64,000 nt of DNA from contig DATNPZ010000001.1 of the NCBI GenBank assembly GCA_036702965.1, forward strand, positions 70,313 through 134,312, read 5' to 3'. Shown here one piece after another: positions 9,285 through 52,456 of the stretch (position 1 is the first letter of the stretch; every line of letters starts with the position of its first letter). Source of the DNA: Drouetiella sp. GTDB lineage: Bacteria > Cyanobacteriota > Vampirovibrionia > Obscuribacterales > Obscuribacteraceae. The position numbers and the translations under genes are program-made. Below the pieces are notes generated by a model. The model searched no databases. It saw nothing but the letters and a program-made list of their open reading frames with translations, and was not told the DNA's origin.

Positions 9285-9308
9285 AAATTTGTAGATATCT
9301 CTTAATTT
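9285..9308. repeat. Dispersed palindromic element copy (AAATTAAGnGATATCnCTTAATTT family)
   Basis: The sequence is aaatttgtaGATATCtcttaattt. The right half is perfect and the left half is degenerate. It is intergenic. Confidence 0.6.
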
Positions 9309-9402
9309 CCGAACCCAATCTCTTGGATACTTAATTGCCTGTAATTACTTGACAGCTCAATTTGACTTAAACTGCAGTGGTCTTTAGATAACGAAGGCTC
9401 TG

Positions 9403-10569
9403 ATGCGGAAACGATTTTTCGGAATAACTCAAGCTCTTGCTGTTTCAACAACTGTTGCATTACTGACAAGCAATTACGTAGCGGCATTTGCTGCTCCTGA
9501 AGCCGATTTAGAAGAAGCACCGCGTAATGTGTCGGCGAACGCTCAAACAGCCTCCGAGAAACCGAAGGCGAAAGGGCAAACGACGCAGCTCTTGAAGGGC
9601 TCCGTTGACTACGTTGTTCCGCAAGGCACCGAGTTCAAGCTGAAGTTAGCTTCTGTACCAAGCACCGGAATGCATCTGTTTGATCGCGATCTGGATGGAA
9701 ATTTATACCCGGCGGAAGTGGGTCAGGAAGTTACAGCCAAAACTTCCGAAGACATGTACATTGATGACAACAAAGTCATTCCAGAAGGCACGATTTTTCA
9801 TGGCACCGTCACGAAGATTGCGGACCCACGCAGGCTGCACAGAGATGGTTATCTCTCAATTTCTTTTGACCATTTAAAAACTCCAGACGGAAAAGTTTTC
9901 GCGTTCAAGGCTGATGCGAACAATTTCGTAAAATCAACGAACAAATCGAAGGCTCGTGAAGCAGGCCGAGTTGCAGCTCACGCGGCTGGTGGAGCCATTG
10001 TAGGAGCTTTAGTCGCTTATCAAATTTTCGGTTGGAGAGGCACGGTCGCCACCCACGGATATAACATCGCAGGTGGTGCCGCCGGCGGTGCGCTGATCGC
10101 CACTGGTTTTGCTTTGATGGACAAAGGCAAAAAAGCCGTGCTCGAACCAGGCGACAACTTGAATATGAAGATCGATACCGACTTGCTGATGCCTGCAGCC
10201 GTTGAGCCAACAGTCAAGGTAGGCTCGCAGAATTTGGACGGACTGGACGTTCAGGTGGAAAAGTCCAAGCTTGTGAAAGATGGATTGGATGGCCACCTGG
10301 TTCGCCTTGACGTCGTGATCGCCAACGATAGCGATAGGGAACTGAAGTCTATCGACCTCTACCTCGAAGACGGAAACGGCAACCGCAGCCCAATCTGTAA
10401 CGGCGTAGACATCGATTATGACAACACTGAATTTTTGTTTTCCATGAGACCTCACACTCGCCGGAAGGTGCGTCTAAACTTCGCAGTCGAATATCCGAAG
10501 CTACAGCGCCAGTTAGTATGGCTTGACCATAAAAGTCGGCAGGTTTGTTACCGACAAAAGCTTCCTTAA
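9403..10569 (+). CDS. Hypothetical secreted protein with glycine-zipper segment
   Basis: 388 aa. It has a signal-like N-terminus (ALAVSTTVALLTSNYVAAFAAPEA) and a Gly/Ala zipper (AAHAAGGAIVGALVAYQIFGW...GGAAGGALIATGFALM). No catalytic motif was recognised. Confidence 0.5.
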   Translation: MRKRFFGITQALAVSTTVALLTSNYVAAFAAPEADLEEAPRNVSANAQTASEKPKAKGQTTQLLKGSVDYVVPQGTEFKLKLASVPSTGMHLFDRDLDGNLYPAEVGQEVTAKTSEDMYIDDNKVIPEGTIFHGTVTKIADPRRLHRDGYLSISFDHLKTPDGKVFAFKADANNFVKSTNKSKAREAGRVAAHAAGGAIVGALVAYQIFGWRGTVATHGYNIAGGAAGGALIATGFALMDKGKKAVLEPGDNLNMKIDTDLLMPAAVEPTVKVGSQNLDGLDVQVEKSKLVKDGLDGHLVRLDVVIANDSDRELKSIDLYLEDGNGNRSPICNGVDIDYDNTEFLFSMRPHTRRKVRLNFAVEYPKLQRQLVWLDHKSRQVCYRQKLP

Positions 10570-10862
10570 TCGACAAACGTCCAATTCTGTGGGCTTTTCA
10601 GGAAAAGCAAAATTCTGTTTCGTGACTACGTATTTTCCCGTATTGACGAAAAGTTAGCCTGGTTTCATATTATATGCATCGACACGGTTAGATGTGCCTT
10701 CGATCCATCCTATAACCTTACTAGATGCATTGCGATGCACCGTCCGCGGTATCGCGCATCCAGTCCCCAGATCCTTTCGGGATTCGTTTTTCTGCGAATT
10801 CTGATGCGTTTTCACAAGTAGCAACGAGAAGAAGCCCTCTTGCCAGAATTAGGAGTCGCAAA

Positions 10863-12056
10863 ATGCGACCGGATATGACAATTAGTTCGATTGCATCAGA
10901 ATTGATTAGTTCAGCAGGTATATTGACCGGCGAAGTTTTAGTGCAAGCGCACATCCTGGCAAACCGTCATCACGTGCCTTTCGGGCGAGCGCTCGTAATG
11001 AGTGGGCACCTCGGTGAAGGCGACCTGACCTCGCTTCTGCAAGCTTCTCAGATGGTCAAACAGGGCGAAATAACCAAAGAAATGGCTGTTCCAGTAATCA
11101 AAAAAGCCATATCCGAGTGTCTACCATTTTTTAGCATCATCCATCGCGTGCAAGAAAAACCACGCAAGATGTTGGCTGAATTTTTACTGGATACGCACGT
11201 CCTGAACGAGGCGACGCTTGACTCATTCTTAGCGCAGGCAGAAGAGCGTGACTTGACTCTAGGTCGAGTCTTAATTCTCAGCGAAACTCTGACAGCAAAA
11301 CATGTAAAAGATGCAATCGATCTCTTAGTACTAACGAGAGGGAAGTGCATCACGCACGCTTGTTCGATTCGCGCATTCAAATTGATTTGGGCTTCGGAGA
11401 TAAGCCTTCTGGATGCTCTGGCAAAATGTGACGTAGAAATATTTGATGCGATGCCAAAATTAGGCGAGCTGCTCTGTGACGCCGGAGTGCTATCTGAAAC
11501 AGAAGCGCTGACTGCCGCAGAAATAGGACTGGAGCAGAACAAGCCAATTGGTGAAGTGCTTTTCGAAAGCGGATTGACACCACCGTTGGTGCTCAAAGCT
11601 GCACTTCGCCTGCAAAGCATGGTAATGAACGGTAAGTTGAATGACGCTCAGGCTCAAGTCTTGCTGAAGCAAGCACATGAACATCAGGTGCCTGTCGAAA
11701 AAGTTCTCGAAGAACTGGGAGAATTCAAAAAAGACATCGTAGATTTCTTGAGACGGTCAAGAAAAATCTCGGAAAAGGACCTAAGAACTGCAATCGAAAG
11801 ATTTCCATCTTTCCGCGACGATCACGCTCGAGCCCTGATGGCTAATGAAGCATTGCCACTGAAGACTCTTAAAACTGCCGTACACAGCCTTAACTTGGTG
11901 CGGGGCAGCGTCGCCAGCATGGACCAAGCGATTATGGTCTTCCACTATTGCTTGAGAACCGGAACATCGGTGAAAGAGGCTAGAAAAGAGTTGACCTGGA
12001 ACAGCAATATCGCTGACGCAAGTCGCATGATTCCCAGCGTCGCCATCGTAGCTTAA
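10863..12056 (+). CDS. Protein built of GspE-N/MshEN-like (T2SSE_N-like) helical repeats
   Basis: Recurrent modules include KLGELLCDAGVLSETEALTAAEIGLEQ, PIGEVLFESGLTPPLVLKAALRLQ, LAEFLLDTHVLNEATLDSFLAQAE and LGRVLILSETLTAKHVKDAIDL. The start was moved to ATG 10863 (MRPDMTISS), preceded by AGGAG 7 nt upstream. The ORF track extends to 10725. Confidence 0.5.
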   Translation: MRPDMTISSIASELISSAGILTGEVLVQAHILANRHHVPFGRALVMSGHLGEGDLTSLLQASQMVKQGEITKEMAVPVIKKAISECLPFFSIIHRVQEKPRKMLAEFLLDTHVLNEATLDSFLAQAEERDLTLGRVLILSETLTAKHVKDAIDLLVLTRGKCITHACSIRAFKLIWASEISLLDALAKCDVEIFDAMPKLGELLCDAGVLSETEALTAAEIGLEQNKPIGEVLFESGLTPPLVLKAALRLQSMVMNGKLNDAQAQVLLKQAHEHQVPVEKVLEELGEFKKDIVDFLRRSRKISEKDLRTAIERFPSFRDDHARALMANEALPLKTLKTAVHSLNLVRGSVASMDQAIMVFHYCLRTGTSVKEARKELTWNSNIADASRMIPSVAIVA

Positions 12057-12080
12057 AAACCCAACCACGACTCCATCTCC

Positions 12081-12104
12081 AATTTAAGAGATATCGCTTA
12101 TTTT
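12081..12104. repeat. Dispersed palindromic element copy
   Basis: The sequence is aattTAAGAGATATCGCTTAtttt. It lies between convergent genes. Confidence 0.75.
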
Positions 12105-12543
12105 ACAGAACCTCTTCCAGCTTGTCGCTGTGGACGTTCTCGTTATCACGATGGGTTGTCAGGTCTGTTCGATGGGCAGTCCATGAACCGTGCACCTGCA
12201 TAGTACTGTCGTAAATCGTCCATTTACCGCGCATCGTTTTTCCGTCATCACTCATCGTTCCAACATATTCGATCGGATGCATCCCGCGCCCGGACTGGAC
12301 GTACTGCTTTGTGAACTGAACGTGCGGGTAAGAGAAGGCTCCAGCACAAACGGCTGGACCAAGCTGTTCGTGGTCGATGATGTCACCGGAAATGGTGTTT
12401 TTATCGGCAACAAATTCCGCATCGAAACCGCTGCCCGAATCCGGAACAGAATGGTAAGTGTAGTGACCGCGCCACCGACCCTCTATGGTGTGAGACATCA
12501 AGCCACCTGCCAAGTCCTTCAAAACTAACATATCACGCCTCAA
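12103..12543 (-). CDS. Hypothetical protein
   Basis: 146-aa ORF that does not compete with a better ORF. The GRWRGHYTYH...GKTMRGKWTI pattern suggests a small beta-rich domain. No family was recognised. Confidence 0.45.
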   Translation of the reverse strand: MRRDMLVLKDLAGGLMSHTIEGRWRGHYTYHSVPDSGSGFDAEFVADKNTISGDIIDHEQLGPAVCAGAFSYPHVQFTKQYVQSGRGMHPIEYVGTMSDDGKTMRGKWTIYDSTMQVHGSWTAHRTDLTTHRDNENVHSDKLEEVL

Positions 12544-12584
12544 GAAGACGATTGTCGGCGCTTGTGGAGTAATCTGCTAATCTA

Positions 12585-13676: not shown

Positions 13677-13707
13677 CGTTACGACGTTGGCACTACATTT
13701 GGTGCGC

Positions 13708-14799: not shown

Positions 14800-14919
14800 A
14801 AGAGAAATACCAAAAGTTGCGGGCACATCATATCGCGATATGCAATCAATATTTTCCACACAACAATAAAATTGCACCACCGTTATCAGCCAGTCAGACC
14901 GGATTTGCGGTGGAACGAA

Positions 14920-14943
14920 TAATTAAGCGATATCGCTTAAAAA
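14920..14943. repeat. Dispersed palindromic element copy (perfect 18-bp palindrome)
   Basis: The sequence is ataaTTAAGCGATATCGCTTAAaaat. It lies between divergent genes. Confidence 0.85.
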
Positions 14944-15073
14944 TCCAGGTGCCTGAGGACGCCGGTTGCGCTTTTGCTTCCAGGAGAGGTGTCGCGTGAT
15001 TTACGTATTTGCGTGCGTGGATGTCACTGCTATCCTCTTCACAACTAGGGACAGCCTTTGAGGTCCGCGTGTA

Positions 15074-16561: not shown

Positions 16562-16607
16562 CTGACACGTAAGTCCGACATCTAGTCTCCGAACTTCGAT
16601 CGACGGT

Positions 16608-16955: not shown

Positions 16956-17057
16956 AACAATCCTTATTTAATTTGCGACGAACTGGCCCTAGATTACCTG
17001 AGCATAGCTCAAATCAGAAACCATAACAACGCTAACCTCAAACCTGAGAACGCTGGA

Positions 17058-18236: not shown

Positions 18237-18722
18237 ATGCAAAAGGTAACACCGTTTTTGTGGTTTGATGAACAAGCAGAAGAAGCTGTCAACTTCTACA
18301 CGTCGATATTCAAGAATTCAAAAATCAAGCAAGTATCACGCTACGACAGAGACAGTGCTAAAGCTTCGGGGCGCGCGGAAGGCTCGGTCATGGTCATAAC
18401 TTTCGAACTGGATGGTCAGGACTACATGGCTTTAAATGGCGGTCCCGTGTTCAAATTCAATCCAGCGATCTCGTTTATGATCAACTGCGACACACAAGAA
18501 GAAATCGACAGAATGTGGGACGAGCTCAGCGATGGAGGCAGCATTCAAGGCTGCGGTTGGGTGACGGACAAGTTCGGAATTTCATGGCAAGTGGTGCCAA
18601 AAGTTTTCGGAACAATGATGAAAGATCCGGATGCTGCAAAAACACGTCGCGTCATGGCATCACTTTTGCAGATGCAAAAATTGGATATCGAGGCACTCGA
18701 AAAAGCATTCGCAGGCGTTTAA
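18237..18722 (+). CDS. VOC-superfamily protein, PhnB / 3-demethylubiquinone methyltransferase-like domain
   Basis: 161 aa. MQKVTPFLWFDEQAEEAVNFYTSIF...KFGISWQVVP is characteristic of this family. A GAGGAA RBS lies upstream. Confidence 0.85.
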   Translation: MQKVTPFLWFDEQAEEAVNFYTSIFKNSKIKQVSRYDRDSAKASGRAEGSVMVITFELDGQDYMALNGGPVFKFNPAISFMINCDTQEEIDRMWDELSDGGSIQGCGWVTDKFGISWQVVPKVFGTMMKDPDAAKTRRVMASLLQMQKLDIEALEKAFAGV

Positions 18723-18857
18723 TCACGCTTGTCGAGGGACAGCGCCTCGCAGGCGTTTAATCACGCTTGCCGAGAGACAGCACTCGCAGGCGTTTAATCA
18801 CGCTTGCCGAGGGACAGCACTCGCAGGCTTTTAATCACGCTTGCCGAGGGACAGAAT
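18709..18857. repeat. Tandem array, 37-38 bp unit, 4 copies, seeded from the 3' end plus stop of the VOC gene
   Basis: TCGCAGGCGTTTAA (TCGCAGGCTTTTAA in the last copy) starts at 18709, 18747, 18784 and 18821. The first copy contains the real FAGV codons plus the TAA at 18720-18722. Confidence 0.9.
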
Positions 18858-25940: not shown

Positions 25941-25978
25941 GAGCCGGACGCGCGAAAGAGCGTCCGGCTCTTTGCTTT
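25941..25978 (+). terminator. Rho-independent terminator after nfu-like gene
   Basis: GAGCCGGACG, a 10-nt loop, then CGTCCGGCTC, followed by TTTGCTTT. Confidence 0.8.
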
Positions 25979-25990
25979 AGCTCCCTCTAA

Positions 25991-26014
25991 AAATTAAGAG
26001 ATATCTGTTTATTA
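25991..26014. repeat. Dispersed palindromic element copy
   Basis: The sequence is aaaTTAAGAGATATCTGTTTAtta. The left half is perfect and the right half is partly degenerate. It is intergenic. Confidence 0.65.
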
Positions 26015-26133
26015 TCAGAGCCAGTCCTGACCCGACTCTTTGTCGAAGACTCGACACGCCCAACACTTGACTTCATGGATTATCCACAATGATCAGCCAT
26101 GCTCAAAAAAACAGCAGCCACAGGGGCATTGTC

Positions 26134-27738
26134 ATGATTAAGTCCACCCGGATCTGGTGCACCATTCTCGCCGCTCTCGGCAGCATGGGTGCCGCTGTGG
26201 CTCACGGGCACGGCGGTGGAGGCGGGCACATGTCGATGGGGCACTCATCGTTCCACGCAAGCTCCTTTCACTCATCTCCATCATTCCATTCGTTTCACTC
26301 GTCATCATCGTTTCACTCGACGCCTTCGTTTCATTCTTCGTCTTTCAGCTCTTCCCCATCCTTTCACTCGTCGTCGTTCAGTTCCTCGCCCTCTTACCAT
26401 TCGTCCTCTTTTGGTTCTTCAGATTTTGGAAGCTCGAGCCACACGAGCTCTGTATACTTTCCAAACCATACGAGTTTCGGAGAGAACGGCTTGAATAACG
26501 GCTCATCTGAGTCGCACCATCACGGCTTTCTCTTTTTTGGCGGACACCACAATCACAACACCATGGAAAATGCGCAGGGTGCATCATCCGTGGCTGGTGG
26601 CGGATTACAAAATGTCAGTACGATTCCGGGAAGCACAGGCGCGCAGAACGTGAACGCGCTGTCGGGCATGCAAGAGCATCACGGCGGCTTTTTGTTTTTC
26701 GGACATCATCACCACAATTCGATGGAAGATGCGAATGGAAATCCAGTGGCCTACTCGCATCACCATCATTCCAATTACAGCAATTTCAACAGCAACGTTT
26801 ATTCGAGCCAACTTCCGCCATCAGGCATGGTGATAAACATGGCGACACCACCAGCGGTGCAGCCTGTGCCGATCAATCTCTCAGTCGCGAAGTACTTCTA
26901 TAACTCGACTCCTCGCATTTACTATAATCCAGCCCGATACTACAACAGCTACACGAACTACAATCCGGGATATTTTGGCTCTTATGGCTCGAATTACAGC
27001 GGCTACGGCTATTCACCGACCGGTGGCATGACCTATCTTTTCTTCCGGCTGCTATCTCTGATTGGAATGGGTCCGAGTTATTACGGATACGGCTCGACAG
27101 CCGGTTATGGATACTCGCCGAATGCATTCCTTGGCACCTGGGGACCAGCTTCAAGCCTCGCTGGACCAGATATGGACCAGAATGCGAATGCAACGAATTT
27201 CGTCAATAACTACGACAACTTCAACTACGCTGGCGGACCGGTAGCACCATTCGCGAATATGGGACCAGCAAATGGCACTGCCGATGATGGCACGACACAT
27301 AATTTCTACGATCAAAACGGCGATCCTCAGATTGGGCAAGACCCCAATCTACAGGGACTCAGTGCTACAAGTGCAGGCAGTTTAGACGCCCAGCAAAATT
27401 TGACTGCAATGTTGGGACCGAACGCCGCGCCTGGATACCAGAATTTTGGTCAGCAAAATTATTCGCAGTCTATAGATAGTGCCGATTCGAACTCGATTCA
27501 ATCTGGAGATAGCGCAAATGAACCACCGCCGTTCAATCAGATTGCGCCTCAAACTTACGGATACCATAACCGCGGTGTGCTGGGCAGCGCTTTCGTGCAT
27601 TCCCGCGAGCTGCCTAAAGGTTCATATCAAGCTCCTGAGCTGCTTGGCATAGTGTTCACCCATCAATTTTGGAATCAGCAAAATGAGTCGCAAACTGACG
27701 ATAACGACCAAACTGATTCAATGACGGCTCAGAATTGA
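26134..27738 (+). CDS. Secreted low-complexity His/Ser/Phe- and Tyr/Gly/Asn-rich protein
   Basis: The signal peptide is MIKSTRIWCTILAALGSMGAAVA-HG. It is followed by (S/P)SFHS-type repeats, then two copies of a HHHGFLFFG(G)HH(H)HN(T/S)ME(N/D)A module, then a Y/G/N/S-rich region. An AGGGG RBS precedes the ATG at 26134. The ORF track extends to 26089. Confidence 0.6.
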   Translation: MIKSTRIWCTILAALGSMGAAVAHGHGGGGGHMSMGHSSFHASSFHSSPSFHSFHSSSSFHSTPSFHSSSFSSSPSFHSSSFSSSPSYHSSSFGSSDFGSSSHTSSVYFPNHTSFGENGLNNGSSESHHHGFLFFGGHHNHNTMENAQGASSVAGGGLQNVSTIPGSTGAQNVNALSGMQEHHGGFLFFGHHHHNSMEDANGNPVAYSHHHHSNYSNFNSNVYSSQLPPSGMVINMATPPAVQPVPINLSVAKYFYNSTPRIYYNPARYYNSYTNYNPGYFGSYGSNYSGYGYSPTGGMTYLFFRLLSLIGMGPSYYGYGSTAGYGYSPNAFLGTWGPASSLAGPDMDQNANATNFVNNYDNFNYAGGPVAPFANMGPANGTADDGTTHNFYDQNGDPQIGQDPNLQGLSATSAGSLDAQQNLTAMLGPNAAPGYQNFGQQNYSQSIDSADSNSIQSGDSANEPPPFNQIAPQTYGYHNRGVLGSAFVHSRELPKGSYQAPELLGIVFTHQFWNQQNESQTDDNDQTDSMTAQN

Positions 27739-31482: not shown

Positions 31483-31584
31483 TTAAGCTCCTCGCTATCG
31501 ACCAAACATTTTTGCACCGCAGTCAATATTACTACAACCAAGTCCAGGCTCAGCCTCCAGCCCTGAGTCTAACCTCCCCTCAGC

Positions 31585-31608
31585 GAATTTAGCGATATCT
31601 CCTAATTT
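31585..31608. repeat. Dispersed palindromic element copy (upstream flank of the IS1595-derived gene)
   Basis: The sequence is gaaTTTAGCGATATCTCCTAAttt. It lies 84 nt upstream of the ATG at 31692. Confidence 0.7.
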
Positions 31609-31691
31609 ATTGGCGTCTCAAATCAACGTCGTTTTCTTTGAACTTTTTACAGGCTTGCTGCGTAGTTGTTTATACGTATGGAGAACTGCCT

Positions 31692-32789
31692 ATGAAAAAT
31701 TCTAATTCCAACCCCAAGACCCAAAACAAAGGCACCAGAAAGGAGAAAATCAAATTAGGAAAAAGAGCTCAGTTCAACCAAAAACAACAGCGTAAATTTT
31801 TCGCTGCAATGCGACGGCTCGAGAGAGAATTTCCAACAGACGCGTCTTGCATAGATAAAATCTACCAGATGGTGATAAAGAAAAAGAGCTGCAAACGCTG
31901 TCACGGAAAACAATTCAACCATCAATCGGGCTCCCGAAAAGCCTACTGTAAAGGGTGTGATGAAGGAATGAGCTTCACAGCAGGTGACACTATTTTTTCT
32001 CACATGAAAAAAGTGCGACCATTCTTTTCAATGGTGATGCTGACCTTGCGCGGAGTGCCATTCAATCCATATCAAATACACAAGTATTTAAAAACCAAAT
32101 CTTATTCACCAAATTGGAAAGCACATCGGCGCATTATGGGCGCTGCACTTGAAGAACTGAAGAAAAAGAGCAAGAAAGTTTCGTCTTTTCTCTTTAACGC
32201 AGTTATCCAGAGACGCAGCGTGGAGACCGCGGCACGGCAACATCCAACTACTGAGCAAGTTAGCGAATTACGCTCTCAGTTTAAGAAAAAGGGGAAGCAT
32301 TGGTTCGAGAAAAAGATCATGGAATTCTGGGGCGAAACAGATTTGGATGCCGAGCACGCACGAGAAATAGCTGACTACCGCAAGGTTTATGACCTATTGG
32401 CAGATGGCCCATTGTCGCTTGAACAGATTATCGAAAAAAGTGATTTGCCGGTCGCAACACCGTTAATTGCGGTGAATATTCTGCTCGTGTGTAATTTGCT
32501 CCGAAAGACAAACAATGGACTATACGAGCACAATGACACAGCCACAGATGCACTAGATCTTCAAGATACGACACTGATTGTGAAGGTATCCGGTGCAATC
32601 GAGTTCATCGATTTTTTGTTTCAAGGCGTTAGCCGCAGATACATTCAGCTTTATACAGCTTCGTACTGGTGTTTTTCTGAACATTCAAGGAAGAAGAGGG
32701 CGAATCTTTTAAATCAATTTTGCACCAATAAATACAACGTCGCGAACATAGAAAATTATGTATCTCCACTATTGATCGATGTTGCTTAA
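31692..32789 (+). CDS. IS1595-type transposase N-terminal (Zn-ribbon + HTH) homologue without DDE domain; C-terminal winged-helix-like segment
   Basis: FPTDASCIDKIYQ...CKRCHGKQFNHQSGSRKAYCKGCDEGMSFTAGDTIFSHMKKVRPFF...SYSPNWKAHRRI follows the Zn_Tnp_IS1595 pattern (CxxC...YxCxxC..S.TAGTIF...K...WF...Y.TAW). No DDE-type acidic triad region (DExYxGG) follows. GGAGA lies upstream of the ATG at 31692. The ORF track starts at TTG 31638. Confidence 0.6.
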   Translation: MKNSNSNPKTQNKGTRKEKIKLGKRAQFNQKQQRKFFAAMRRLEREFPTDASCIDKIYQMVIKKKSCKRCHGKQFNHQSGSRKAYCKGCDEGMSFTAGDTIFSHMKKVRPFFSMVMLTLRGVPFNPYQIHKYLKTKSYSPNWKAHRRIMGAALEELKKKSKKVSSFLFNAVIQRRSVETAARQHPTTEQVSELRSQFKKKGKHWFEKKIMEFWGETDLDAEHAREIADYRKVYDLLADGPLSLEQIIEKSDLPVATPLIAVNILLVCNLLRKTNNGLYEHNDTATDALDLQDTTLIVKVSGAIEFIDFLFQGVSRRYIQLYTASYWCFSEHSRKKRANLLNQFCTNKYNVANIENYVSPLLIDVA

Positions 32790-32825
32790 AACCGCGGGTG
32801 ATAGTGGCATGCACGCATTGCTTGC

Positions 32826-32849
32826 AAATTAAGAGATATCACTTAATTT
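32826..32849. repeat. Dispersed palindromic element copy (downstream flank of the IS1595-derived gene)
   Basis: The sequence is aaaTTAAGAGATATCACTTAAttt. It lies 37 nt after the stop at 32789. Confidence 0.8.
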
Positions 32850-32909
32850 AGCCGATCTGTACAGGGAGGTCGAAAGGCAGATTGCAGAGTGGATTCGAAT
32901 CATTACTTG

Positions 32910-34682
32910 CTATCGTCTCGCGATAGCGCGCAGCTCTTCTGCTTTATTCAAATCACCCTGTCCAGCGCAAATATCTGCCAGAGACAAATATGTCCCAGTC
33001 AACAAAGGATCATGTGGATAACACTTTGTTTGGCGAATAGCCAGTGCCTGTTCCAACTCAACTCTTGCAGCTCGAAGGTCGTTCTTTTCTCTAAACATCC
33101 ATGAGAGATTCTCATAGGCAAAAGCAACGCCGAGGTCTGCCTCTCCGAGCTTACTGACCTTATTTGCCAGACTCATCCGGAAATACTTTTCGGACTTTGC
33201 AAAATCTTTGGACAGCTTGAAGTGGAAAGCTAAATCGTTGTACGTGTCTGCAAGTTCAACTGAATCTACACCAAATATAGTGGCACGCTTTTCAATCACT
33301 TGTTGATAGAGAACCTCAGCCTCATCATAACGACCCAAGTGCGTCAACAAACAGGCATAGACGTTTTCGGCATAAAGACATTTTGGGTCGTTTGCAGGCA
33401 AATTGTTGCCATAAATAGCGCGCGCTTCCAGAAGAAGCGCTTCAGCTTGCTGGTACATTTGCATGACATCGTAGAGAGTGCCCAAATCAAGAAGACTTTC
33501 AGCAAGAGTAAGCGGCTCAAAGTTATTGAGTCTTTTCGACTCAACGACGCGCTCATACAGAGCCATCGCCGACTTAGTGTCGCCACTCCACCTAGTTGAA
33601 TAAGCCATTCCGCTAAGCACAGGCAAAACTCGCAAAGGTTGAGCATCTGAATTCGCTTCGATCAATTTCAAGTACGCGCTCAATATTCGAAGCGCTTGCG
33701 CATGAAGTTGTTTGTCCTGCAACCTGCGGACGGCGACAGAGACGACGTAATCAAGCTGTGCGTCATCAATGCCTTTGTCAGTTACCAACATTGCTTTGCA
33801 AAACCACCGAACCGCTCCATCAAAATCTTGCTGCAGTTCAGACTGCTCACCTTGATTCCACAAATCCTTGAACGTCTCGTTTTCGAGTGGCGCATTTGCA
33901 TCCGACCACGACTTGAAGTGTGGACAAACAGGACGCTGATCCGGCAGCACTCCGCGAAGATAGTCCATGTTTCTACCGTTGTATATCTCAGGTCGGCGAC
34001 GCTCGTACCACTCATCCCAAAGAGGCGGGCGTCCGTCGACTGCTCTCAAATCGTAGCCGGCCTGATCGCTGTTCATGACGAACATTTGTGCAATAGGTTC
34101 GCCTTTTTGAATAGTAAATTTTCCGGGCTTATTAGCCAAACAAACAATGCCAAACTCAGAAGGCGACCACCATGATTCGATCATCGCCTCTAGCACAGTG
34201 AACGGCTGCCTGAGCTGGTTTGCGACACCTTTGATGTAAACGAAATCACCCAGTCTTTTTGTTCTTGCAATAAATTTGGTCTGCACTGTAAAACTACCGT
34301 GCGCAGAGTGAGTATCGATTACACAGTGACTAGCAGCATCGCTTATCGTGACTACACAATCATGCGTTTGCTCACCATCCCACTCAACTGTAAAAGTAGC
34401 CGGCGAAAGGATGTAGTAGCCTAATCCGCTCGCCATCGTCAACGGCAAACAGAATCTAGCGTGCATCTTCGTTTTCTCGTCAGCTTCCCACCACTGACGC
34501 AACATCTTTGCTTTAGTTGGCAGAAGCGACTTGTCATAGTTCGGCGGGAGAAAAAGCGTTATCGCTTGATCTAGCAACTCTTGGTTCATCTGAGCAATTT
34601 GCTCGGGACCAAATTTGGGCTTCTCCGACGTCTCTGCTTCATCGCGAGCCGGACATTTTCTTTTATCGTTATCGCTTCGCAT
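32910..34682 (-). CDS. Hypothetical protein: N-terminal ~270-aa globular domain of unknown function fused to C-terminal TPR repeats
   Basis: 590 aa. The C-terminal half has kinesin-light-chain-like TPRs (LAESLLDLGTLYDVMQMYQQAEALLLEA..., LADTYNDLAFHFKL...). The N-terminal domain (FCLPLTMASGLGYYILSP...) may be DUF6065-like, but I cannot verify that. Confidence 0.5.
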   Translation of the reverse strand: MRSDNDKRKCPARDEAETSEKPKFGPEQIAQMNQELLDQAITLFLPPNYDKSLLPTKAKMLRQWWEADEKTKMHARFCLPLTMASGLGYYILSPATFTVEWDGEQTHDCVVTISDAASHCVIDTHSAHGSFTVQTKFIARTKRLGDFVYIKGVANQLRQPFTVLEAMIESWWSPSEFGIVCLANKPGKFTIQKGEPIAQMFVMNSDQAGYDLRAVDGRPPLWDEWYERRRPEIYNGRNMDYLRGVLPDQRPVCPHFKSWSDANAPLENETFKDLWNQGEQSELQQDFDGAVRWFCKAMLVTDKGIDDAQLDYVVSVAVRRLQDKQLHAQALRILSAYLKLIEANSDAQPLRVLPVLSGMAYSTRWSGDTKSAMALYERVVESKRLNNFEPLTLAESLLDLGTLYDVMQMYQQAEALLLEARAIYGNNLPANDPKCLYAENVYACLLTHLGRYDEAEVLYQQVIEKRATIFGVDSVELADTYNDLAFHFKLSKDFAKSEKYFRMSLANKVSKLGEADLGVAFAYENLSWMFREKNDLRAARVELEQALAIRQTKCYPHDPLLTGTYLSLADICAGQGDLNKAEELRAIARR

Positions 34683-34762
34683 TCATTCCTTCAACACGCG
34701 GCACGGCGCTATTTCACGCGATGCGGCACGGGCTCCTTCACCACGATGCAGCCCAGCGTAAA

Positions 34763-37645: not shown

Positions 37646-38569
37646 CTATGCTTCGTAGCGAATCCAACCCGTGCCTTCGTGCCCGAATTTGAAATTTGTT
37701 GGGTCAAAGATTTCTGCAAGAATCTCCAGGGATTCGACCACTCTTGGTCCAGGACGATTGAAATACTGGTTGCCGTCAGCGACATATATGGACTTGCTTG
37801 TTACCGCTTTCAACGATGCAAAGTTCGGCTTCTCTTTCAAGATAAACATCTCTTCCATTGTTCGTTTTATATCAAACCCGCACGGGCTAACAATGATGAT
37901 GTCCGGGTCATCATTGACGAGTTGCTCCCACGCCATCCACGGTGAGTGTTTGCCAGCCTCACCGTACAAATTTTTGCCGCCAGCCAACTCGATCAACTCC
38001 GGCATCCAGTTACCTGCAGCCATGAGCGGATCAATCCACTCAATACAGGCGACAGTCGGCGTCCTGGTTCTGCCTTCAGCTTTAAGCGATATCGCTTTAA
38101 TTCGAGATTGCAGTTTCTCGATCGTCGCATCGCCCTGCCCTTTAATACAAAGTCCACGCGCGACGCGTCTGATGTCATCCCAAATGTCGTCCAAACAGTT
38201 TGGCTCGAGAGAGATTATCTTCGGCTGTGATTTGATCATCTCGCAAGCTGCTGCTTCGACATCTTTCAAACTCACGGCACAAACTTCGCATTGAGCTTGA
38301 GTGATGATATGGGTGGGTGAAAGCCCATCAAGCAGCGCAGCATCGACGCGATAGACGCTAACAGCCTCCTGCAAGATAGCTTTGACCCGCTGGTCTATTT
38401 CGTAGCTCGTGCCGTCGGGGCTAAACTTTGGGGACGTGCATTGAGGCAGCTCTTTTACGAATTCAGGATAGTCACATTCGTGCGAACGCCCAACTAAATC
38501 TGATTCGAGACCAAGCGCACAAACGATTTCAGTGGCACTGGCGATTAACGAGACAATTCTGTTGGACAT
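37646..38569 (-). CDS. Periplasmic-binding-protein family 2 (BtuF / Fe-siderophore-binding-like) protein
   Basis: MSNRIVSLIASATEIVCALGLESDLVGRSHECDYP... is a typical Peripla_BP_2 N-terminus. The start was moved to the ATG at 38569, 24 nt after the stop of the upstream gene. The ORF track extends to 38746 and overlaps that gene. Confidence 0.7.
   Translation of the reverse strand: MSNRIVSLIASATEIVCALGLESDLVGRSHECDYPEFVKELPQCTSPKFSPDGTSYEIDQRVKAILQEAVSVYRVDAALLDGLSPTHIITQAQCEVCAVSLKDVEAAACEMIKSQPKIISLEPNCLDDIWDDIRRVARGLCIKGQGDATIEKLQSRIKAISLKAEGRTRTPTVACIEWIDPLMAAGNWMPELIELAGGKNLYGEAGKHSPWMAWEQLVNDDPDIIIVSPCGFDIKRTMEEMFILKEKPNFASLKAVTSKSIYVADGNQYFNRPGPRVVESLEILAEIFDPTNFKFGHEGTGWIRYEA
38082..38099. 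repeat. Intragenic near-perfect copy of the dispersed palindrome
   Basis: TTAAGCGATATCGCTTTA matches 17 of 18 positions of the perfect copy at 14923-14940. It lies inside the binding-protein CDS, at codons KAISLKA. Confidence 0.6.
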
Positions 38570-44530: not shown

Positions 44531-44544
44531 TATCAGTTCTTCTT

Positions 44545-46885: not shown

Positions 46886-48551
46886 GGTAGTTTTCTCCGT
46901 CTCCGCCACTGCCGAATTGCAAATCCCACAACGGTCTTCGGCTGCGTACAACCGGCACGCGCTCGAAGTTTTCAGCTATTGGCGGCGATTCGCAAAGCCA
47001 TTCCAAAGTCCATGCGTTCCAGGGATTTGGACCAGCAATCTGCCCGTGATAAAAACTCCAGATCAAGTTGTAGACGAAAAGCAAAATTGAAAAAACAAGG
47101 ATAAAAGAGCAGCATGACGAGAAGAAATTCAACTCAGCCCAGCCTGGCATTCCCAGCGGATAAGTGTAAACACGTCGTGGCATTCCCAAAATTCCAAGAA
47201 TATGGAGAACGAAGAAAGTGCCATTGAATCCGACAGTCATCAACCAGAACTGCCATTTGCCCAGGGTCTCGGACATCATTCTGCCCGTGGCTTTCGGATA
47301 CCAGTAATAGACACCGGCAATAAGTGAGAACAACATGCCGCCGACAAGAACATAATGGAAGTGTGCAACGACGAAGTAGCTGTCTGTGAGCTGCCAGTCC
47401 AGCGGAATGACCGCAAACATAACGCCGCTCAATCCACCGATTGTGAACTGGATCAAAAACGCCATCGAATGCAACATGGCTGTCGTGAACTTCAGTTTGC
47501 CACCCCACATGGTGGCAAGCCACGACCAGACTTTGATCCCAGTCGGTACTGCAATCAACAAGCTGGTTACAGCGAAGATGTAGAGCGGAGCGAATCCAAG
47601 ACCCGTCGCAAACATATGGTGGACCCAGACGCCGAAGCTCAAAAAGGTGATAGCTACGGTGGATGCGGCCATCACGCCGGCTCCGAAAAGCAGCTTACGA
47701 GAGAAGACAGGGATGATTTCAGAAATTGCCCCCCACCCTGGAAGAATCAAGATGTAGACTTCAGGATGACCGAAGAACCAGAAGAAGTGCTGCCACAGAA
47801 GCGGTGAACCACCAACGGTTGCATCGAAGAAGTGAGTGTTCAAAATTCGGTCGAAGAGGATCATCACAAGCGCAGCGTTCAGTGCAGGCAGTGAGAAGAT
47901 GACGAGGAAGGCATCCATCAAGATCATCCAGACGAAAAGCGGAACACGCTTCAAAGTCATGCCAGGAGCGCGCATCGTCAAAATTGTGACGACCAGATTG
48001 ACCCCTGTTGCCACCGAACCAATACCGGTGACAAAAAGGCTGAGTGCCCAGTAATTCTGTCCACTATTAAAGAGATATCCCTTTTCGCTCAAAGGCGGAT
48101 AGGCGAACCATCCCGCTGCCGGCGCTCCACCAGCTAAGAAGCTGAAGAACATCATGATTGCGCCGAAAACGTAAACCCAGTATCCAAATGAGTTTAAACG
48201 CGGAAACGCCATATCGCGAGCGCCGATCATCAATGGAGTAAGGTAGACAGCGAAGCCGAAAAGTAAAGGCATCCCGACGAAGAAAACCATAGTGGTACCG
48301 TGGACGGTGAACACCTGGTTGTAAGCTTCTTGCGAAATGACGTGGTTCATCGGGAACATCAACTGAATACGAATCAGCAGTCCAAGAAACGCACCAACCA
48401 CGAGAAAAGCAAACGCCGAAAGGATATAAAGGATACCGAGTTGCTTGTGGTCGATCGATGTCAACCAGCTCAGGATGCCCTGATACTCAGGTACATCACG
48501 TAACCAATTCACTGGTTTGTGCGAGTGTGGATGCAACGCACTGTCGGTCAT
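46878..48551 (-). CDS. ctaD: Cytochrome c oxidase subunit I
   Basis: 557 aa. HGTTMVFF, WFFGHPEVYILILP and HHMF...VAHFHYV are haem-copper oxidase signatures. Confidence 0.97.
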   Translation of the reverse strand: MTDSALHPHSHKPVNWLRDVPEYQGILSWLTSIDHKQLGILYILSAFAFLVVGAFLGLLIRIQLMFPMNHVISQEAYNQVFTVHGTTMVFFVGMPLLFGFAVYLTPLMIGARDMAFPRLNSFGYWVYVFGAIMMFFSFLAGGAPAAGWFAYPPLSEKGYLFNSGQNYWALSLFVTGIGSVATGVNLVVTILTMRAPGMTLKRVPLFVWMILMDAFLVIFSLPALNAALVMILFDRILNTHFFDATVGGSPLLWQHFFWFFGHPEVYILILPGWGAISEIIPVFSRKLLFGAGVMAASTVAITFLSFGVWVHHMFATGLGFAPLYIFAVTSLLIAVPTGIKVWSWLATMWGGKLKFTTAMLHSMAFLIQFTIGGLSGVMFAVIPLDWQLTDSYFVVAHFHYVLVGGMLFSLIAGVYYWYPKATGRMMSETLGKWQFWLMTVGFNGTFFVLHILGILGMPRRVYTYPLGMPGWAELNFFSSCCSFILVFSILLFVYNLIWSFYHGQIAGPNPWNAWTLEWLCESPPIAENFERVPVVRSRRPLWDLQFGSGGDGENYHA

Positions 48552-49504
48552 TTCAAGTTCTCCAGATAAACAGCGATGTCATGCGCTTCTTCGTTGGTCA
48601 AGCGCATATTAGGCATGTTGCAGCCTGGTTTAAATTGTTGTGGATTCTGCATCCACTTCGCGAGATTGTCAGTGGTGTTCTCCAACACTCCGGCACCGAG
48701 AGTTCCTCTCGTTGCGATGTGAGTCAAATCAGGACCAATCCGCGCGGTCGCTTCGGCATCACCAGCGATGCGATGACACTGCACGCAAGTAGCAGAGTTG
48801 AAGAGCTCTTTGCCTTTTACTGCAGCCGGATCGGTTGATTGCTGCGGCAACGCAGCTTGCTGTTTGATCCAATCATCGAATTCAGGTTTGGATACGACAT
48901 GGGCAATGATTCTCATCAATCCGTGCTGCGCGCCGCAATACTCAGAGCACGTACCAAGGAAGAGTCCTGTTTTAGTTGGATGGACAAACATATTTGTTGG
49001 ATGTCCGGGAATCGCATCCATCTTCTGTCCGAACGCCACAACCCAGAAGGAGTGCACTACGTCGGCGGCGCGAATTTCAAAGAGAGCGTTCTCACCGACT
49101 GGTAAATAAAGTTCATTCGCTGTCGTGACACCGTATTTGGGGTATTGATACTCCCACCACCACTGGTGCCCTACAACAATCACGTCAGGCTTTTTAGTTC
49201 CCACTGCTGGATTGACCATGATCATGGTGACCGCAGTCAGCACGCCAAGAACAGTGACGATAAGCATTGGTATCGCCGTCCAAATTATCTCGAGCCTGGT
49301 GTTGCCGTGAATCTGTTTCGGTTCGCTGCCATCATCGTTTTCAGGCGTTCTGAACTTCGCAATGATTGCCACCATCAATCCTGTGACAACGAATGCGATC
49401 ACAAGACAGATGCCGAGCGTGAACCAGTGCAAGTCGACAAGCAGCTTGTTCTGCGCAGTTGCGACATTGAATATGCTAGTAAAATCCGCGTTCTTTAAAT
49501 CCAT
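48548..49504 (-). CDS. ctaC: Cytochrome c oxidase subunit II with fused cytochrome c domain (caa3-type)
   Basis: The CuA site is HSFWV...CSEYCGAQHGLM. A C-terminal CVQCH haem c motif is present. Confidence 0.92.
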   Translation of the reverse strand: MDLKNADFTSIFNVATAQNKLLVDLHWFTLGICLVIAFVVTGLMVAIIAKFRTPENDDGSEPKQIHGNTRLEIIWTAIPMLIVTVLGVLTAVTMIMVNPAVGTKKPDVIVVGHQWWWEYQYPKYGVTTANELYLPVGENALFEIRAADVVHSFWVVAFGQKMDAIPGHPTNMFVHPTKTGLFLGTCSEYCGAQHGLMRIIAHVVSKPEFDDWIKQQAALPQQSTDPAAVKGKELFNSATCVQCHRIAGDAEATARIGPDLTHIATRGTLGAGVLENTTDNLAKWMQNPQQFKPGCNMPNMRLTNEEAHDIAVYLENLK

Positions 49505-50439
49505 CGCAACATCCGATCTATGATTACCGCCGCAAAGATTGCCGGCAAATAGAGGAGACTGAAAAGCAGCACCCTACGCGCGCCTTCACGCGTACGATTT
49601 TTCCACCATTGCACCGAGCTTGCCACCAATGTTAAGCCGCCAACAACTGAAGCGACACAATATGCAGGTCCAGCAAACGGATTGCCGGTCCAATAGAGCA
49701 TCACCGAGAGTGGCAACAAGAGAATTGCCGTGAACACGGTCAATCCGAATGTTTTTTCACCGCTTTCTTCCAACACCGGCAACATCTTGAAACCGGCTGC
49801 GGCATAGTCGCTTCGATACATCCAGGCAATCGGCAAGAAGTGCGTGTGTTGCCAGATGAAGAGAACTGCAAAAAGGATCCAACCACCTGGGTTCATGGTG
49901 CCCGAGGCCGCAGCCCAACCGATCATCGGAGGAATGGCTCCAGGTACTGCACCGATAGATGTGTTCAACCAGGTCCAGCGTTTAGATGGTGTGTACATAA
50001 AGAGGTAGATTGCACTGGCGGCAACACCAAGCCCAGCACACAACGTATTGACGGATAAAAGGAATAACGCACCTGTGGCAATCAAAAATACGCCATACGT
50101 CAAGGCTAACTGCGGAGAGATGACGCCTGCAGGAATCGGCCGATTTGCAGTTCGAGGCATAAGCGCATCGAGGTCGCGTTCGATGTAGCAATTAAGCGCG
50201 CATGAACCGCCGCTAAGCAAGCCAGTCCCAATCAAAGCACATGCAAAGCGGATGCAATCAAATCTTCCGTTGTAAGCAAGCACAAATCCAACTGCACATG
50301 AGATCACCACCATGAATGCAATTCGAGTGCGAGCTAAATCCCAAAACGCTGCGAGTGTCCCCTGAAGGCGATTCGTATGTAATATTTGACCGCTGCTCAA
50401 CACAAGCAGTACTCCAAACACCAGTGCTTCCGCCGTCAA
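49495..50439 (-). CDS. ctaB: Protoheme IX farnesyltransferase (heme O synthase)
   Basis: 314 aa, UbiA-family multi-TM protein with DRDLDALMPRTANRPIP. The start is a TTG at 50439 according to the ORF track. The stop overlaps the ctaC start by 10 nt. Confidence 0.9.
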   Translation of the reverse strand: MTAEALVFGVLLVLSSGQILHTNRLQGTLAAFWDLARTRIAFMVVISCAVGFVLAYNGRFDCIRFACALIGTGLLSGGSCALNCYIERDLDALMPRTANRPIPAGVISPQLALTYGVFLIATGALFLLSVNTLCAGLGVAASAIYLFMYTPSKRWTWLNTSIGAVPGAIPPMIGWAAASGTMNPGGWILFAVLFIWQHTHFLPIAWMYRSDYAAAGFKMLPVLEESGEKTFGLTVFTAILLLPLSVMLYWTGNPFAGPAYCVASVVGGLTLVASSVQWWKNRTREGARRVLLFSLLYLPAIFAAVIIDRMLRWI

Positions 50440-50705
50440 TTCTTACGTACTTGAGCGCCATTCTTCGACAATGTAACGATTAGTTTGCACAAAACCTGCT
50501 TAAGAAGCCGGTCTCAGCAGTCAAAATTGGACACTTCAAAACGATGCGCATGAGAAAGCGATCAGAAAGAAACGATTGATCATCAAAATCAATGACGCCG
50601 ACGCTAAAACTTCCTTCAATCTTTGTTGGCAACTGCAACAAGCGCGATAAGCTTTACCAGATGCAAGATCTGACACAACGTATTTTTGTTTAGCGGTGAT
50701 ACACG

Positions 50706-51989
50706 ATGGCGAAAGCTAAAGAGAAGGCAGATAAGAACAGCGAGAAGTACAAGATGCATATGGCGCTCGGCCTTATGTTTCTTACGGTCTTCATCGACTT
50801 AATCGGTTTTGGAATCATCATTCCGGTTCTGCCACTTTATGCGAAACAGTTTGGCGCAGACGGATTCACAGTCGGACTGCTGCTCACATCCTATTCATTA
50901 ATGCAGTTCTTTTTTGCGCCGATGTGGGGTCGGTTGTCCGACAAAATTGGTCGCCGTCCGGTGCTTTTGATTAGTCTTTGCACATCAGCAATCGGTTACA
51001 CCATCTGGGGATTTTCAAATTCCTTACCGATGCTTTTTCTCTCGCGAATCGTTGCCGGATTTGGAAATGCGAACTTAGCCGTTGCACAAGCATTCATATC
51101 CGACGTTACGCCTGAAGACTACAGGTCGCAGGGCATGGGAATGATCGGTGCGGCGTTCGGTCTTGGCTTCGTACTCGGACCCGCTATCGCTGGTATTTCG
51201 ACGAGTTTCGGTGTTCACCCGAATACACTTGGATTCGTCGCAGCAGTTTTCAGCGTCATCGATTTGATCTTCACTGCAATCTATCTGCCGGAACCGAAAA
51301 GCCGCTCGGAAAGTTCACACAATCCATTTGCTAACGGCGCATCCTTTTATTTCAGCACGGTCACAGACAAGCGTTTCTTTCTGTCGATGTTCATCATCTT
51401 CATCTCGACATTTGCATTTGCAAACATGGAAACAACGTTGGTCCTTTTAACCGCACAGTACTACAACTTCAATTACAGAGAGAACAGCTCCCTCTTTGTC
51501 GGATTGGGGATTGTCATGGTCTTCATTCAGGGATTTTTGATCCGCAAGATCGGAAAGAAGTATCCGGATCAGCCGCTGATCGCAGTGGGCACAGCATTGA
51601 TCGCAGTCGGTCTTGTAATGGTCCCGATTACACACAACCTGGTTGTGCTGTGCATCGGATTGATTCTGCTTGCGACAGGTTCGGGCATCAACAATCCATC
51701 GAGCAGCAGTTTATTGTCCAAGCTCGCACCGAAAGAACACACCGGTGGAATCATGGGTGTTGGTCAATCGATGTCTACACTGGGACGAATTCTTGGTCCC
51801 GTTGTCGGCGGGTACCTGTTCGATAAGGGCGCAAGCGTTCCTTATTGGCTGGGAGCAGCATGCATGTTGGTGGCTTGCGGACTGAGTTTCAAACTACCAG
51901 TTATCCAAAAGATTCAGCCGACCAAGGAAACAGACGCGTCTTCATCCGCGCCGGAACCAGAATTGCATGCCACTGAACGTGGTGCTTAA
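50706..51989 (+). CDS. MFS transporter (DHA1 / Tet-like efflux family)
   Basis: 427 aa with 12 TM segments and motif A, MWGRLSDKIGRRPVLL. Confidence 0.85.
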   Translation: MAKAKEKADKNSEKYKMHMALGLMFLTVFIDLIGFGIIIPVLPLYAKQFGADGFTVGLLLTSYSLMQFFFAPMWGRLSDKIGRRPVLLISLCTSAIGYTIWGFSNSLPMLFLSRIVAGFGNANLAVAQAFISDVTPEDYRSQGMGMIGAAFGLGFVLGPAIAGISTSFGVHPNTLGFVAAVFSVIDLIFTAIYLPEPKSRSESSHNPFANGASFYFSTVTDKRFFLSMFIIFISTFAFANMETTLVLLTAQYYNFNYRENSSLFVGLGIVMVFIQGFLIRKIGKKYPDQPLIAVGTALIAVGLVMVPITHNLVVLCIGLILLATGSGINNPSSSSLLSKLAPKEHTGGIMGVGQSMSTLGRILGPVVGGYLFDKGASVPYWLGAACMLVACGLSFKLPVIQKIQPTKETDASSSAPEPELHATERGA

Positions 51990-52009
51990 GTCTACAAAAC
52001 TGCGTCGTT

Positions 52010-52306
52010 CTAGAACGGTCGCCGTTTAGTAATCAAATTACCGATCACAATAAACATGGAGACAAGTCCTGCCGCTTGTCCGACGCGCTGCGCTTGCCAG
52101 GCACCCGAACCGATTGTGTGCCGTTCAGGTTCTTTCACGAGCTCGACTTTCGGAATCACCTTGCCGTTGGCACAGGTATTGACGATATCGCGCACTCCAT
52201 CGATTGGACCCTGGATCAGAGTATGGGCAAAGGATTGAGTGAATCCGCCGACAATGTCATTGTCTCGGCTTTCATCTCTGCATCCGTCAAATGTCTCGTC
52301 CATCAT
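52010..52306 (-). CDS. Small hypothetical protein with C-terminal TM helix
   Basis: 98-aa ORF with a C-terminal AAGLVSMFIVIGNLI. No motif was recognised. Confidence 0.35.
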   Translation of the reverse strand: MMDETFDGCRDESRDNDIVGGFTQSFAHTLIQGPIDGVRDIVNTCANGKVIPKVELVKEPERHTIGSGAWQAQRVGQAAGLVSMFIVIGNLITKRRPF

Positions 52307-52432
52307 TCACCTCACAAGTCACTTGCTTCACTTTACATGCCCACCATCTTAGTGAAACTAGGTAAAACCCAAGTCAAGAGAAAGATAAAATCACGGGCTT
52401 TTCGGGGGACCCTGCTAGATACAGGGTGCTGA

Positions 52433-52456
52433 GAATAAAGAGATATCTCTTAAATT
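52433..52456. repeat. Dispersed palindromic element copy
   Basis: The sequence is gaaTAAAGAGATATCTCTTAAatt. It lies between divergent genes. Confidence 0.75.

Follow-up and report, generated by a model that had tools for sequence, protein, structure and literature searches.

We show herein that a palindrome of 24-34 bp is dispersed between the genes of a 64-kb stretch of chromosome from a member of the Obscuribacterales (the whole stretch that was analysed is hereafter called the window), that this family of repeats is genuine, and that what is conserved in it is the DNA sequence, not an RNA hairpin. One gene of the window, 31692-32789, is flanked by two copies of the palindrome, one before and one after it, and encodes a 365-amino-acid (aa) winged-helix and zinc-ribbon protein that appears to derive from a transposase. 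The original prediction for this DNA had interpreted the repeat as a protein-binding site or a miniature mobile palindrome; the sequence supports that interpretation, and a candidate for the binder can now be named. With modest confidence, we propose that this transposase-derived protein binds the palindromes and that they have multiplied through the intergenic DNA.

When the window was searched with the pattern TTAAGNGATATCNCTTAA, allowing up to three mismatches, 10 matches were found against 0.18 expected, and none of 100 shuffled sequences reached 10. The mismatch spectrum of the 18-mer in the window (2, 3, 3, 2, 3, 10 and 51 matches with zero, one, two, three, four, five and six mismatches, respectively) contains no excess of near misses at intermediate matches (four to six mismatches). 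Scores in a symmetric position-weight scan were likewise bimodal, with ten copies at 25 bits or more and everything else in the window at 13.7 bits or less. Lone 9-bp half-sites occur in the window at chance level only, and inverted pairs of uptake sequences were rejected on this result. Eight of the ten copies are intergenic on a gene map built from open reading frames (ORFs), Pfam, NCBIfam and synteny, and intergenic DNA makes up 13.4% of the sequence (binomial P = 3.6e-6). These eight copies, a small number for such a comparison, are uniform among the types of intergenic region: 4 of 23 co-directional, 2 of 9 divergent and 2 of 8 convergent regions carry one, and a stop codon precedes six of the eight. 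Past the window, two more copies were found in DNA of the same organism to the left (4.6 kb, L101) but none in the 9.9 kb to the right (L097). Window and flanks together (78.5 kb) thus have 12 copies, or about one per 6.5 kb, and at least four of the 12 lie between convergent genes. All nine copies listed earlier were recovered at the same coordinates, and a tenth, weak copy was added at 48068. The original prediction had also placed the copies between convergent, divergent and co-directional gene pairs alike, which holds, and had named an intergenic bias and a frequency above that expected from base composition as points to be checked; the bias is present, as is, for the window only, the excess. 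The genes of the window are ordinary chromosomal genes whose closest homologues come from Candidatus Obscuribacterales (Melainabacteria). Identical proteins carry the NCBI label "Drouetiella sp.", taken to denote a photosynthetic cyanobacterium; with all close homologues in Candidatus Obscuribacterales, this label is probably wrong.

The dyad is composed of two 9-bp half-sites, TTAAGMGAT, arranged around a GATATC centre, and the full arm can be followed weakly out to 17 nt (TCTGGAAA-TTAAGMGAT). Conservation falls outwards from this centre: GAT is present in 21-22 of 22 arms (~95%), TTAAG in ~85-90%, AAA in ~80% (A is found at positions -3 to -1 in 15-20 of 22 arms) and the outer TCTG in ~55%. 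At position M (the "N"), 21 of 22 arms have A or C, and the two arms of a copy vary independently in this respect (six copies with the same letter, four mixed and one other, for 11 copies). Deviations of an arm from the consensus are never compensated in the opposite arm. Folded as RNA, the copies of the window reach only -2 to -7 kcal/mol, and for six of the nine this energy differs from that of shuffled sequence by less than one standard deviation. In addition, copy 25994 starts 24 nt after a canonical GC-rich terminator (25941-25970); the organism therefore has proper terminators, and the palindrome is something else. Because the folds are weak, the arm deviations are uncompensated and a canonical terminator stands beside one of the copies, the window copies are not RNA structures. 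The features of an intrinsic terminator, a GC-rich stem with a U-tract whose structure is kept while its sequence is free, are not found in the palindrome; those of an operator, dyad symmetry, independently varying half-sites and position-specific conservation, all are. Taken together, the graded position-specific constraint, the A/C position common to a second genome (SMAG_U16523, described below) and the absence of decayed copies argue for recognition of double-stranded DNA by a symmetric protein.

A CT-rich tract (CCTCCC-like) accompanies 8 of 13 copies, on one side only, compared with 19% of random intergenic positions, by thresholds that were picked after the data had been seen. Its side relative to the genes is not significantly biased, 7 of 10 copies following a co-oriented upstream gene against ~5.5 expected from a hand count. 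Tracts of this kind stand 25 nt outside the cores at 12084, 25994, 31588, 32829, 42951 and 52436, and also at L101 7745 and L042 372. The copies do not resemble the terminal inverted repeats (TIRs) of a miniature inverted-repeat transposable element (MITE) or insertion sequence (IS): no MITE or IS ends were found among them, their arms abut without internal DNA, no flanking direct repeats (target-site duplications) were found, and there is no active transposase nearby. Nor do they behave as a word of the HIP1 or uptake signal sequence (USS) type, for which coding abundance and an excess of one-off variants would be typical. A search of the window with Rfam and for tRNAs returned only a tRNA-Gln. 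Several points of the original prediction bear on this picture. It had held that the sequence and not merely the stem is conserved, which the weak folds, the uncompensated deviations and the independent A/C choice at M confirm; it had ranked a protein site or a miniature mobile palindrome above a terminator, a ranking that the folds and the real terminator beside copy 25994 uphold; and the A-runs, T-runs and CT-rich block that it described beside the copies are real, the last being one-sided. On the contrary, its suggestion of a methylase or restriction target context finds no sign in the window, where GATATC occurs 36 times against 30.8 expected. Restriction avoidance was rejected on the same count, GATATC being neither depleted nor enriched.

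Both copies that flank gene 31692-32789 have a CT-rich tract on their outside, in inverted orientation. This gene and the following one, 32910-34682 (TPR/DUF6065), form an insertion between the ECH and DUF192 genes (window 31483-34762), which are adjacent in five related loci (L096, L104, L105, L107 and L110). The 365-aa protein was found on seven contigs, the same number as its single-copy neighbours; the candidate gene is therefore single-copy and does not have the profile of a multi-copy mobile gene. A full HMMER search gave a protein family of 584 representative clusters of similar length, of which 60 aligned members were used for the profile results. Among the aligned members, a CxxC...CxxC motif is invariant (C67, C70, C86 and C89 of the window protein); DprA_WH is matched by 60 of 60; Zn_ribbon_IS1595 (PF12760) is matched by 10, with a best E = 9e-7 and the window protein itself below detection; and the NCBIfam IS1595 transposase model NF033547 is matched by 40, all below cutoff and only at the two ends of the model, profile positions 2-84 and 176-212. 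The 60 members have no conserved Asp column, and the window protein has no DDE triad. The parts of the 365-aa protein are an IS1595-type zinc ribbon, a helical stretch, a winged helix at about residues 220-285 and, at the C-terminus, an IS1595-like motif. Its AlphaFold model is confident (predicted local distance difference test, 89; predicted template-modelling score, 0.79) and mostly helical, and only the winged helix resembles solved structures (ArsR, MarR, IclR and DprA). Compared with an IS1595 transposase, the protein has the zinc ribbon and lacks the DDE catalytic domain. From its profiles and model, we read it as an IS1595-transposase relative with a winged helix in place of the catalytic middle, and for that reason it is predicted to bind DNA and probably not to cut or move it. 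Searches of a plasmid collection, PADLOC and PHROGs yielded nothing useful for this protein, except that the N-terminus of one homologue matches an uncharacterised phrog. In the 78 kb of window and flanks, neither an active transposase nor a REP-associated tyrosine transposase (RAYT) or other Y1 transposase was found.

Dyads with the same centre were also found beside homologues of this gene. Flanking DNA could be retrieved for two of them. The first (P0243, 33% identical, in L111) has four or five TAAAGTGATATC-type sites 200-360 nt upstream of the gene; the second (P0246, 30% identical, in L112) has CTAAACCGATATCGGTTTAG and CTAAAGCGATATCGGTTGAG 92-146 nt upstream, with a second pair 3 kb off in a convergent intergenic region. 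A box, TTGAACTTTTTA, is common to the genes of the window, L111 and L112, and lies 38-43 nt before the ATG in all three. Thus, at three loci a site lies upstream of the gene of the candidate binder, and its sequence varies along with the homologue, as is expected of an operator. A related pair was found in L091, where two TAAACCGATATCGGTTTA dyads (TAAACC type) precede the orthologue of gene 26089-27738; the corresponding window copy, 25994, has one such arm. Dyads are often paired, 33-41 bp apart, in L091, L111 and L112. From genome to genome the arms change (TTAAGM, TAAAGT and TAAACC) while the GATATC centre stays the same, a pattern expected from the co-evolution of a protein and its site. 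With regard to gene 26089-27738, a conserved block of ~45 nt either precedes the His/Gly/Tyr-rich gene or forms its beginning (window 26030-26100, L091 9120-9200 and L104 9094-9170). The His/Gly/Tyr-rich proteins of the same three genomes are only 39% identical, and the annotated start at 26089 may be wrong.

The origin of one copy can be followed in part, since it lies within a gene. Copy 38082 sits in the inter-lobe helix of a periplasmic protein, and an alignment of 23 orthologues shows no insertion or deletion there. Its left arm pre-existed as coding sequence (TCTAGAATGAAAGCAAT in L110; TCTCGAATTAAAGCGAT in the window). Its right arm, in which 8 of 12 nucleotides have changed relative to L110, is identical to the family consensus ATCGCTTAA instead of being complementary to the left arm. 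Were the left arm to follow the consensus too, a TAA stop codon would appear in the reading frame. The lack of any insertion or deletion, together with the block change of the right arm, shows that at least one copy was made as a block, without a change of length and as near to the consensus as the frame permits. Another copy lies inside a local tandem duplication of 94 bp; this copy, the genome-specific flanks and the G.T asymmetry common to the SMAG copies (see below) indicate that copies also descend from each other by duplication. A clean insertion site in relatives was sought and given up, as the orthologous intergenic regions downstream of NifU are unalignable outside a promoter-proximal block.

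The family has a narrow distribution. In a collection of 185,579 species genomes, which excludes the window's own species, the exact 18-mer gave 70 single matches, near the chance expectation, and a single genome with multiple matches, the Obscuribacterales metagenome-assembled genome SMAG_U16523 (its GAPDH is 79% identical to that of the window). Two contigs of this genome carry three copies in all, each of them intergenic; they have the 18-bp core of the window, the same A/C choice at M, and CGC/GCG flanks where the window has AAA/TTT. All three share a G.T asymmetry, lack a T-tract, fold at -10 to -20 kcal/mol and contain GCGTC in the paired stem on the 3' side. No transposase was found beside them, only ordinary genes. 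A scan of Joint Genome Institute (JGI) metagenomes with a 20-mer gave 18 chance matches, and one of viral contigs gave a single chance match for the motif and no homologue of the 365-aa protein. A literature search for the palindrome sequence found no paper containing it. Copies of this type were absent from closer relatives in the 12-42 kb available for each, i.e., the clade with 91% GAPDH identity (L091, L110 and L104), L094 (86%) and L096 (81%). Being absent from these closer relatives and yet present in SMAG_U16523, the family is patchy. Two other palindromes were noticed in the relatives: L094 has at 5771-5906 an inverted pair, ACCTTGAATTGCCGAAATCGGCAATT and AATTGCCGATTTCGGCAATTCAAGGT, 104 bp apart, which is another GAWATC-centred palindrome, and L110 has at 4171-4245 two TATTTGCTGWACAGTAAATA palindromes, 55 bp apart and upstream of a gene, that resemble an ordinary operator pair.

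If the 365-aa protein is the binder, its predicted target would be AAATTAAGMGATATCKCTTAATTT, and a dimeric, sequence-specific form of it would bind the double-stranded dyads together with A/T-rich flanks of up to 17 nt per arm. With one site just before the conserved promoter box of its own gene, the protein is presumably self-regulated; a second site is located just past the stop codon of the gene, and the other ~10 sites per 78 kb may serve as extra landing sites in all types of intergenic region. New sites would appear as whole units, by templated conversion or duplication and not by a classical cut-and-paste insertion. Several points weigh against this proposal. The density of one site per 6.5 kb greatly exceeds that of a normal regulon, and with at least four of 12 copies between convergent genes, where no promoter is expected, most copies cannot be ordinary operators. 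The closer relatives listed above have no copy of this type. The one-sided CT-rich tract of most copies is not explained by it. The flanks that differ between genomes (AAA versus CGC), the shared SMAG asymmetry and the tandem-duplicated copy mark descent by copying, which fits a selfish element equally well. Finally, the link between gene and site is an association at three loci, with a rough combined chance of 1e-3 to 1e-4 for a pattern that had been noticed before it was tested.

Several other explanations were weighed against the proposed pairing of protein and site. The one closest to it extends it and is put forward tentatively: an IS1595 DDE transposase may have lost its catalytic core and gained a winged helix, and its sites, at hundreds per genome, may have become landmarks (insulators, domain boundaries or a regulatory grid) that spread by templated conversion. 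The main rival, which we hold to be rather unlikely, is a selfish miniature element of the repetitive extragenic palindromic (REP), small dispersed repeat (SDR) or solo-TIR type, copied in trans and without a host function, in which case the IS1595-like gene would be the remnant of a dead parent whose ends were this palindrome. Such an element would account for the lineage-specific and patchy distribution, the flanks and asymmetry peculiar to each genome, the two copies in one intergenic region within a local duplication, the equal spread over intergenic types, and the lack of intermediates, as whole-unit copying predicts. The gene between two copies, with CT-rich tracts outside in inverted orientation, also has an IS-like look, and the gene has been inserted with one neighbour relative to related genomes. 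However, target-site duplications were not found, the in-gene copy added no length, and 78 kb contained no active transposase or RAYT to do the copying; conservation is graded from the centre instead of decaying evenly, with the same A/C degeneracy in two genomes; and a protein family that is full-length, conserved in 584 clusters, single-copy and provided with a conserved promoter suggests a gene in use and not a pseudogene.

It is improbable, in our estimation, that the copies serve a global regulator or nucleoid-associated protein whose gene lies elsewhere and that gene 31692-32789 lies between two of them by coincidence. The dyad symmetry, independent half-sites and position-specific conservation would suit any such protein, and with ~20% of intergenic regions carrying a copy, two adjacent ones are expected by chance at ~4%; yet two distant homologues also have GATATC dyads upstream, with arms of their own and the shared promoter box. 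Least probable are two further explanations, to which we give little credence and about equally little. One takes the copies for RNA elements, either bidirectional intrinsic terminators or mRNA-stabilising 3' hairpins, in keeping with the stop codon before six of eight intergenic copies, the A-runs and T-runs around the palindrome and the good folding of the SMAG variant. Against it stand the poor folds of the window copies, the lack of compensatory changes, the two copies in divergent promoter regions, the canonical terminator before copy 25994 and the SMAG copies that have no T-tract. The other is a signal for DNA uptake, or a methylation- or restriction-linked word, built up by mutation and biased recombination in the manner of USS, DNA uptake sequences (DUS) or HIP1. 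The in-gene copy, which arose by substitution and only as far as the frame allows, and the central GATATC, a hexamer of restriction type, would agree with such a word; but there is no excess at four to six mismatches, GATATC itself is at its expected frequency, the motif is missing in the nearest relatives, and the copies are very strongly biased to intergenic DNA, while USS and HIP1 are generally known to be common inside genes (see also PMC5861425).

The coordinates of the copies, of the candidate gene and of its promoter-like box are collected in Table 1.

Table 1. Copies of the palindrome and associated features in the window. For copies, coordinates are those of the 18-bp core.
Feature	Coordinates	Strand or match	Setting
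Copy TTTGTAGATATCTCTTAA	9288-9305	3 mismatches	Co-directional intergenic; stop codon 46 nt before, next start 98 nt after
Copy TTAAGAGATATCGCTTAT	12084-12101	1 mismatch	28 nt past stop of gene 10725-12056; CT-rich tract at left
Copy TTAAGCGATATCGCTTAA	14923-14940	Perfect	Divergent intergenic region
Copy TTAAGAGATATCTGTTTA	25994-26011	Right arm of TAAAC type	Upstream of His/Gly/Tyr-rich gene 26089-27738
Copy TTTAGCGATATCTCCTAA	31588-31605		86 nt before ATG of candidate binder gene, 33 nt before its TTGAACTTTTTA box; CT-rich tract on outer side
-35-like box TTGAACTTTTTA	31638-31649	+	12-mer, once in the 64-kb window
Gene of candidate cognate protein	31692-32789	+	365 aa, annotated hypothetical; copies 86 nt before ATG and 39 nt after stop
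Copy TTAAGAGATATCACTTAA	32829-32846	Perfect core	Convergent intergenic; 39 nt past stop of candidate gene; CT-rich tract on outer side
In-gene copy	38082-38099		Within Peripla_BP_2 (cobalamin-binding-type) gene; coding strand reads IKAISLK
Copy CTAAGCAATATCGCTTAA	42951-42968		Convergent intergenic, histidine kinase gene / cytochrome b/c gene
Weak match TAAAGAGATATCCCTTTT	48068-48085	3 mismatches	Within COX1; may be a chance match
Copy TAAAGAGATATCTCTTAA	52436-52453		4 nt past stop codon, 123 nt before VIT/VWA gene
Related dyad of TAAACC type, TAAACCGATATCGGCTCA (CTAAACCGATATCGGCTCAA at 63927-63946)	63928-63945	2 mismatches to L091/L112 dyad	17 nt into gene following 62395-63918

The 528 bp at 12057-12584 contain no confident gene. 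A minus-strand ORF at 12103-12543 has no family match; if it is real, copy 12084 lies between convergent genes. Other repeats were also observed in the window. A 36-bp tandem repeat of ~15 units with the core AACTCGCAAAATCAA occupies 7499-8290 of the TPR-protein gene 7467-9242 and encodes a 12-residue repeat. Intergenic tandem arrays are located at 5161-5472 (40-bp unit), 1697-1907 (37-38 bp), 18699-18855 (37 bp), 56769-56864 (16 bp) and 59383-59584 (26 bp). Every one of the 40-bp units includes GGGATTAAGAG, the palindrome's outer arm minus the GATATC centre; arrays of this type might be a second kind of landing pad, or a coincidence.

Dispersed extragenic palindromes are known mainly from Proteobacteria, where they occur with an HUH-type transposase (RAYT) and where their role is debated. 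The arrangement in the window is similar in several respects, with short (20-40 bp), extragenic, lineage-specific palindromes, occasional in-gene copies, and a single-copy transposase-derived gene between repeats. REP elements and RAYTs have been described in detail (Di Nocera et al. 2013, PMC3733652; Bertels and Rainey 2011, PMC3116915), and a hallmark of REPs is an unpaired GTAG or CGTC tag at one end (PMC3733652). As REPs are, the repeats of the window are imperfect palindromes of 20-40 bp (here 24-34 bp) with many extragenic copies (12 in 78.5 kb). Unlike REPs, however, they have symmetric arms without such a tag, their stems are weak, AT-rich and uncompensated (a REP stem is stable and is kept by compensatory changes), they show, in a sample of only eight intergenic copies, no clear bias to convergent or unidirectional intergenic regions (REPs prefer these, near 3' ends), and the in-gene copy adds no residues. 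The associated protein also differs from a RAYT in being a relative of IS1595 (DDE-type) without the catalytic core, and not an HUH/Y1 protein, of which there is none in the window or its flanks.

Nostoc has SDRs of 21-27 nt (Elhai et al. 2008, as cited in PMC3116915 and PMC3733652), and cyanobacteria have the HIP1 octamer (PMC5861425, PMC4390886). Both resemble the present family in being very short and highly repeated and in belonging to the sister lineage, and HIP1 is also a palindrome kept at the DNA level; on the contrary, HIP1 is only 8 bp long and abundant inside genes, and neither SDRs nor HIP1 are known to have a binding protein encoded beside copies. SDRs reportedly show compensatory changes and nest within themselves. 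Human SETMAR is a domesticated transposase that binds dispersed Hsmar1/MiHsmar1 ends. It shares with the candidate protein a transposase-derived DNA-binding module with many candidate cognate sites scattered in the genome, but it is eukaryotic, its sites are MITE ends and its binding has been demonstrated; here the organism is bacterial, the sites are complete dyads and the binding is predicted. Self-regulated winged-helix repressors of the ArsR, MarR and IclR types have a winged helix and a dyad, often paired, upstream of their own promoter, as does the candidate. They differ from it in that the present protein is 365 aa long and carries a zinc ribbon and transposase-like ends, and in that its putative sites number about one per 6.5 kb and lie between convergent genes too.

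The family described herein belongs to the Melainabacteria/Obscuribacterales, an uncultured sister group of the cyanobacteria, and its putative partner, a relative of transposases, lacks a catalytic core. Should the pairing of protein and palindrome hold, bacteria would have turned a transposase and its sites into a genome-wide protein-site system more than once, and a large uncharacterised family of 584 clusters would gain a testable DNA target. The arm variants TTAAGM, TAAAGT and TAAACC would then represent a natural specificity series. If, moreover, the dispersed sites act as landmarks, the system would be to bacteria what SETMAR or CENP-B is to eukaryotes, and may represent a second, independent REP/RAYT-like arrangement that arose from a different transposase superfamily.

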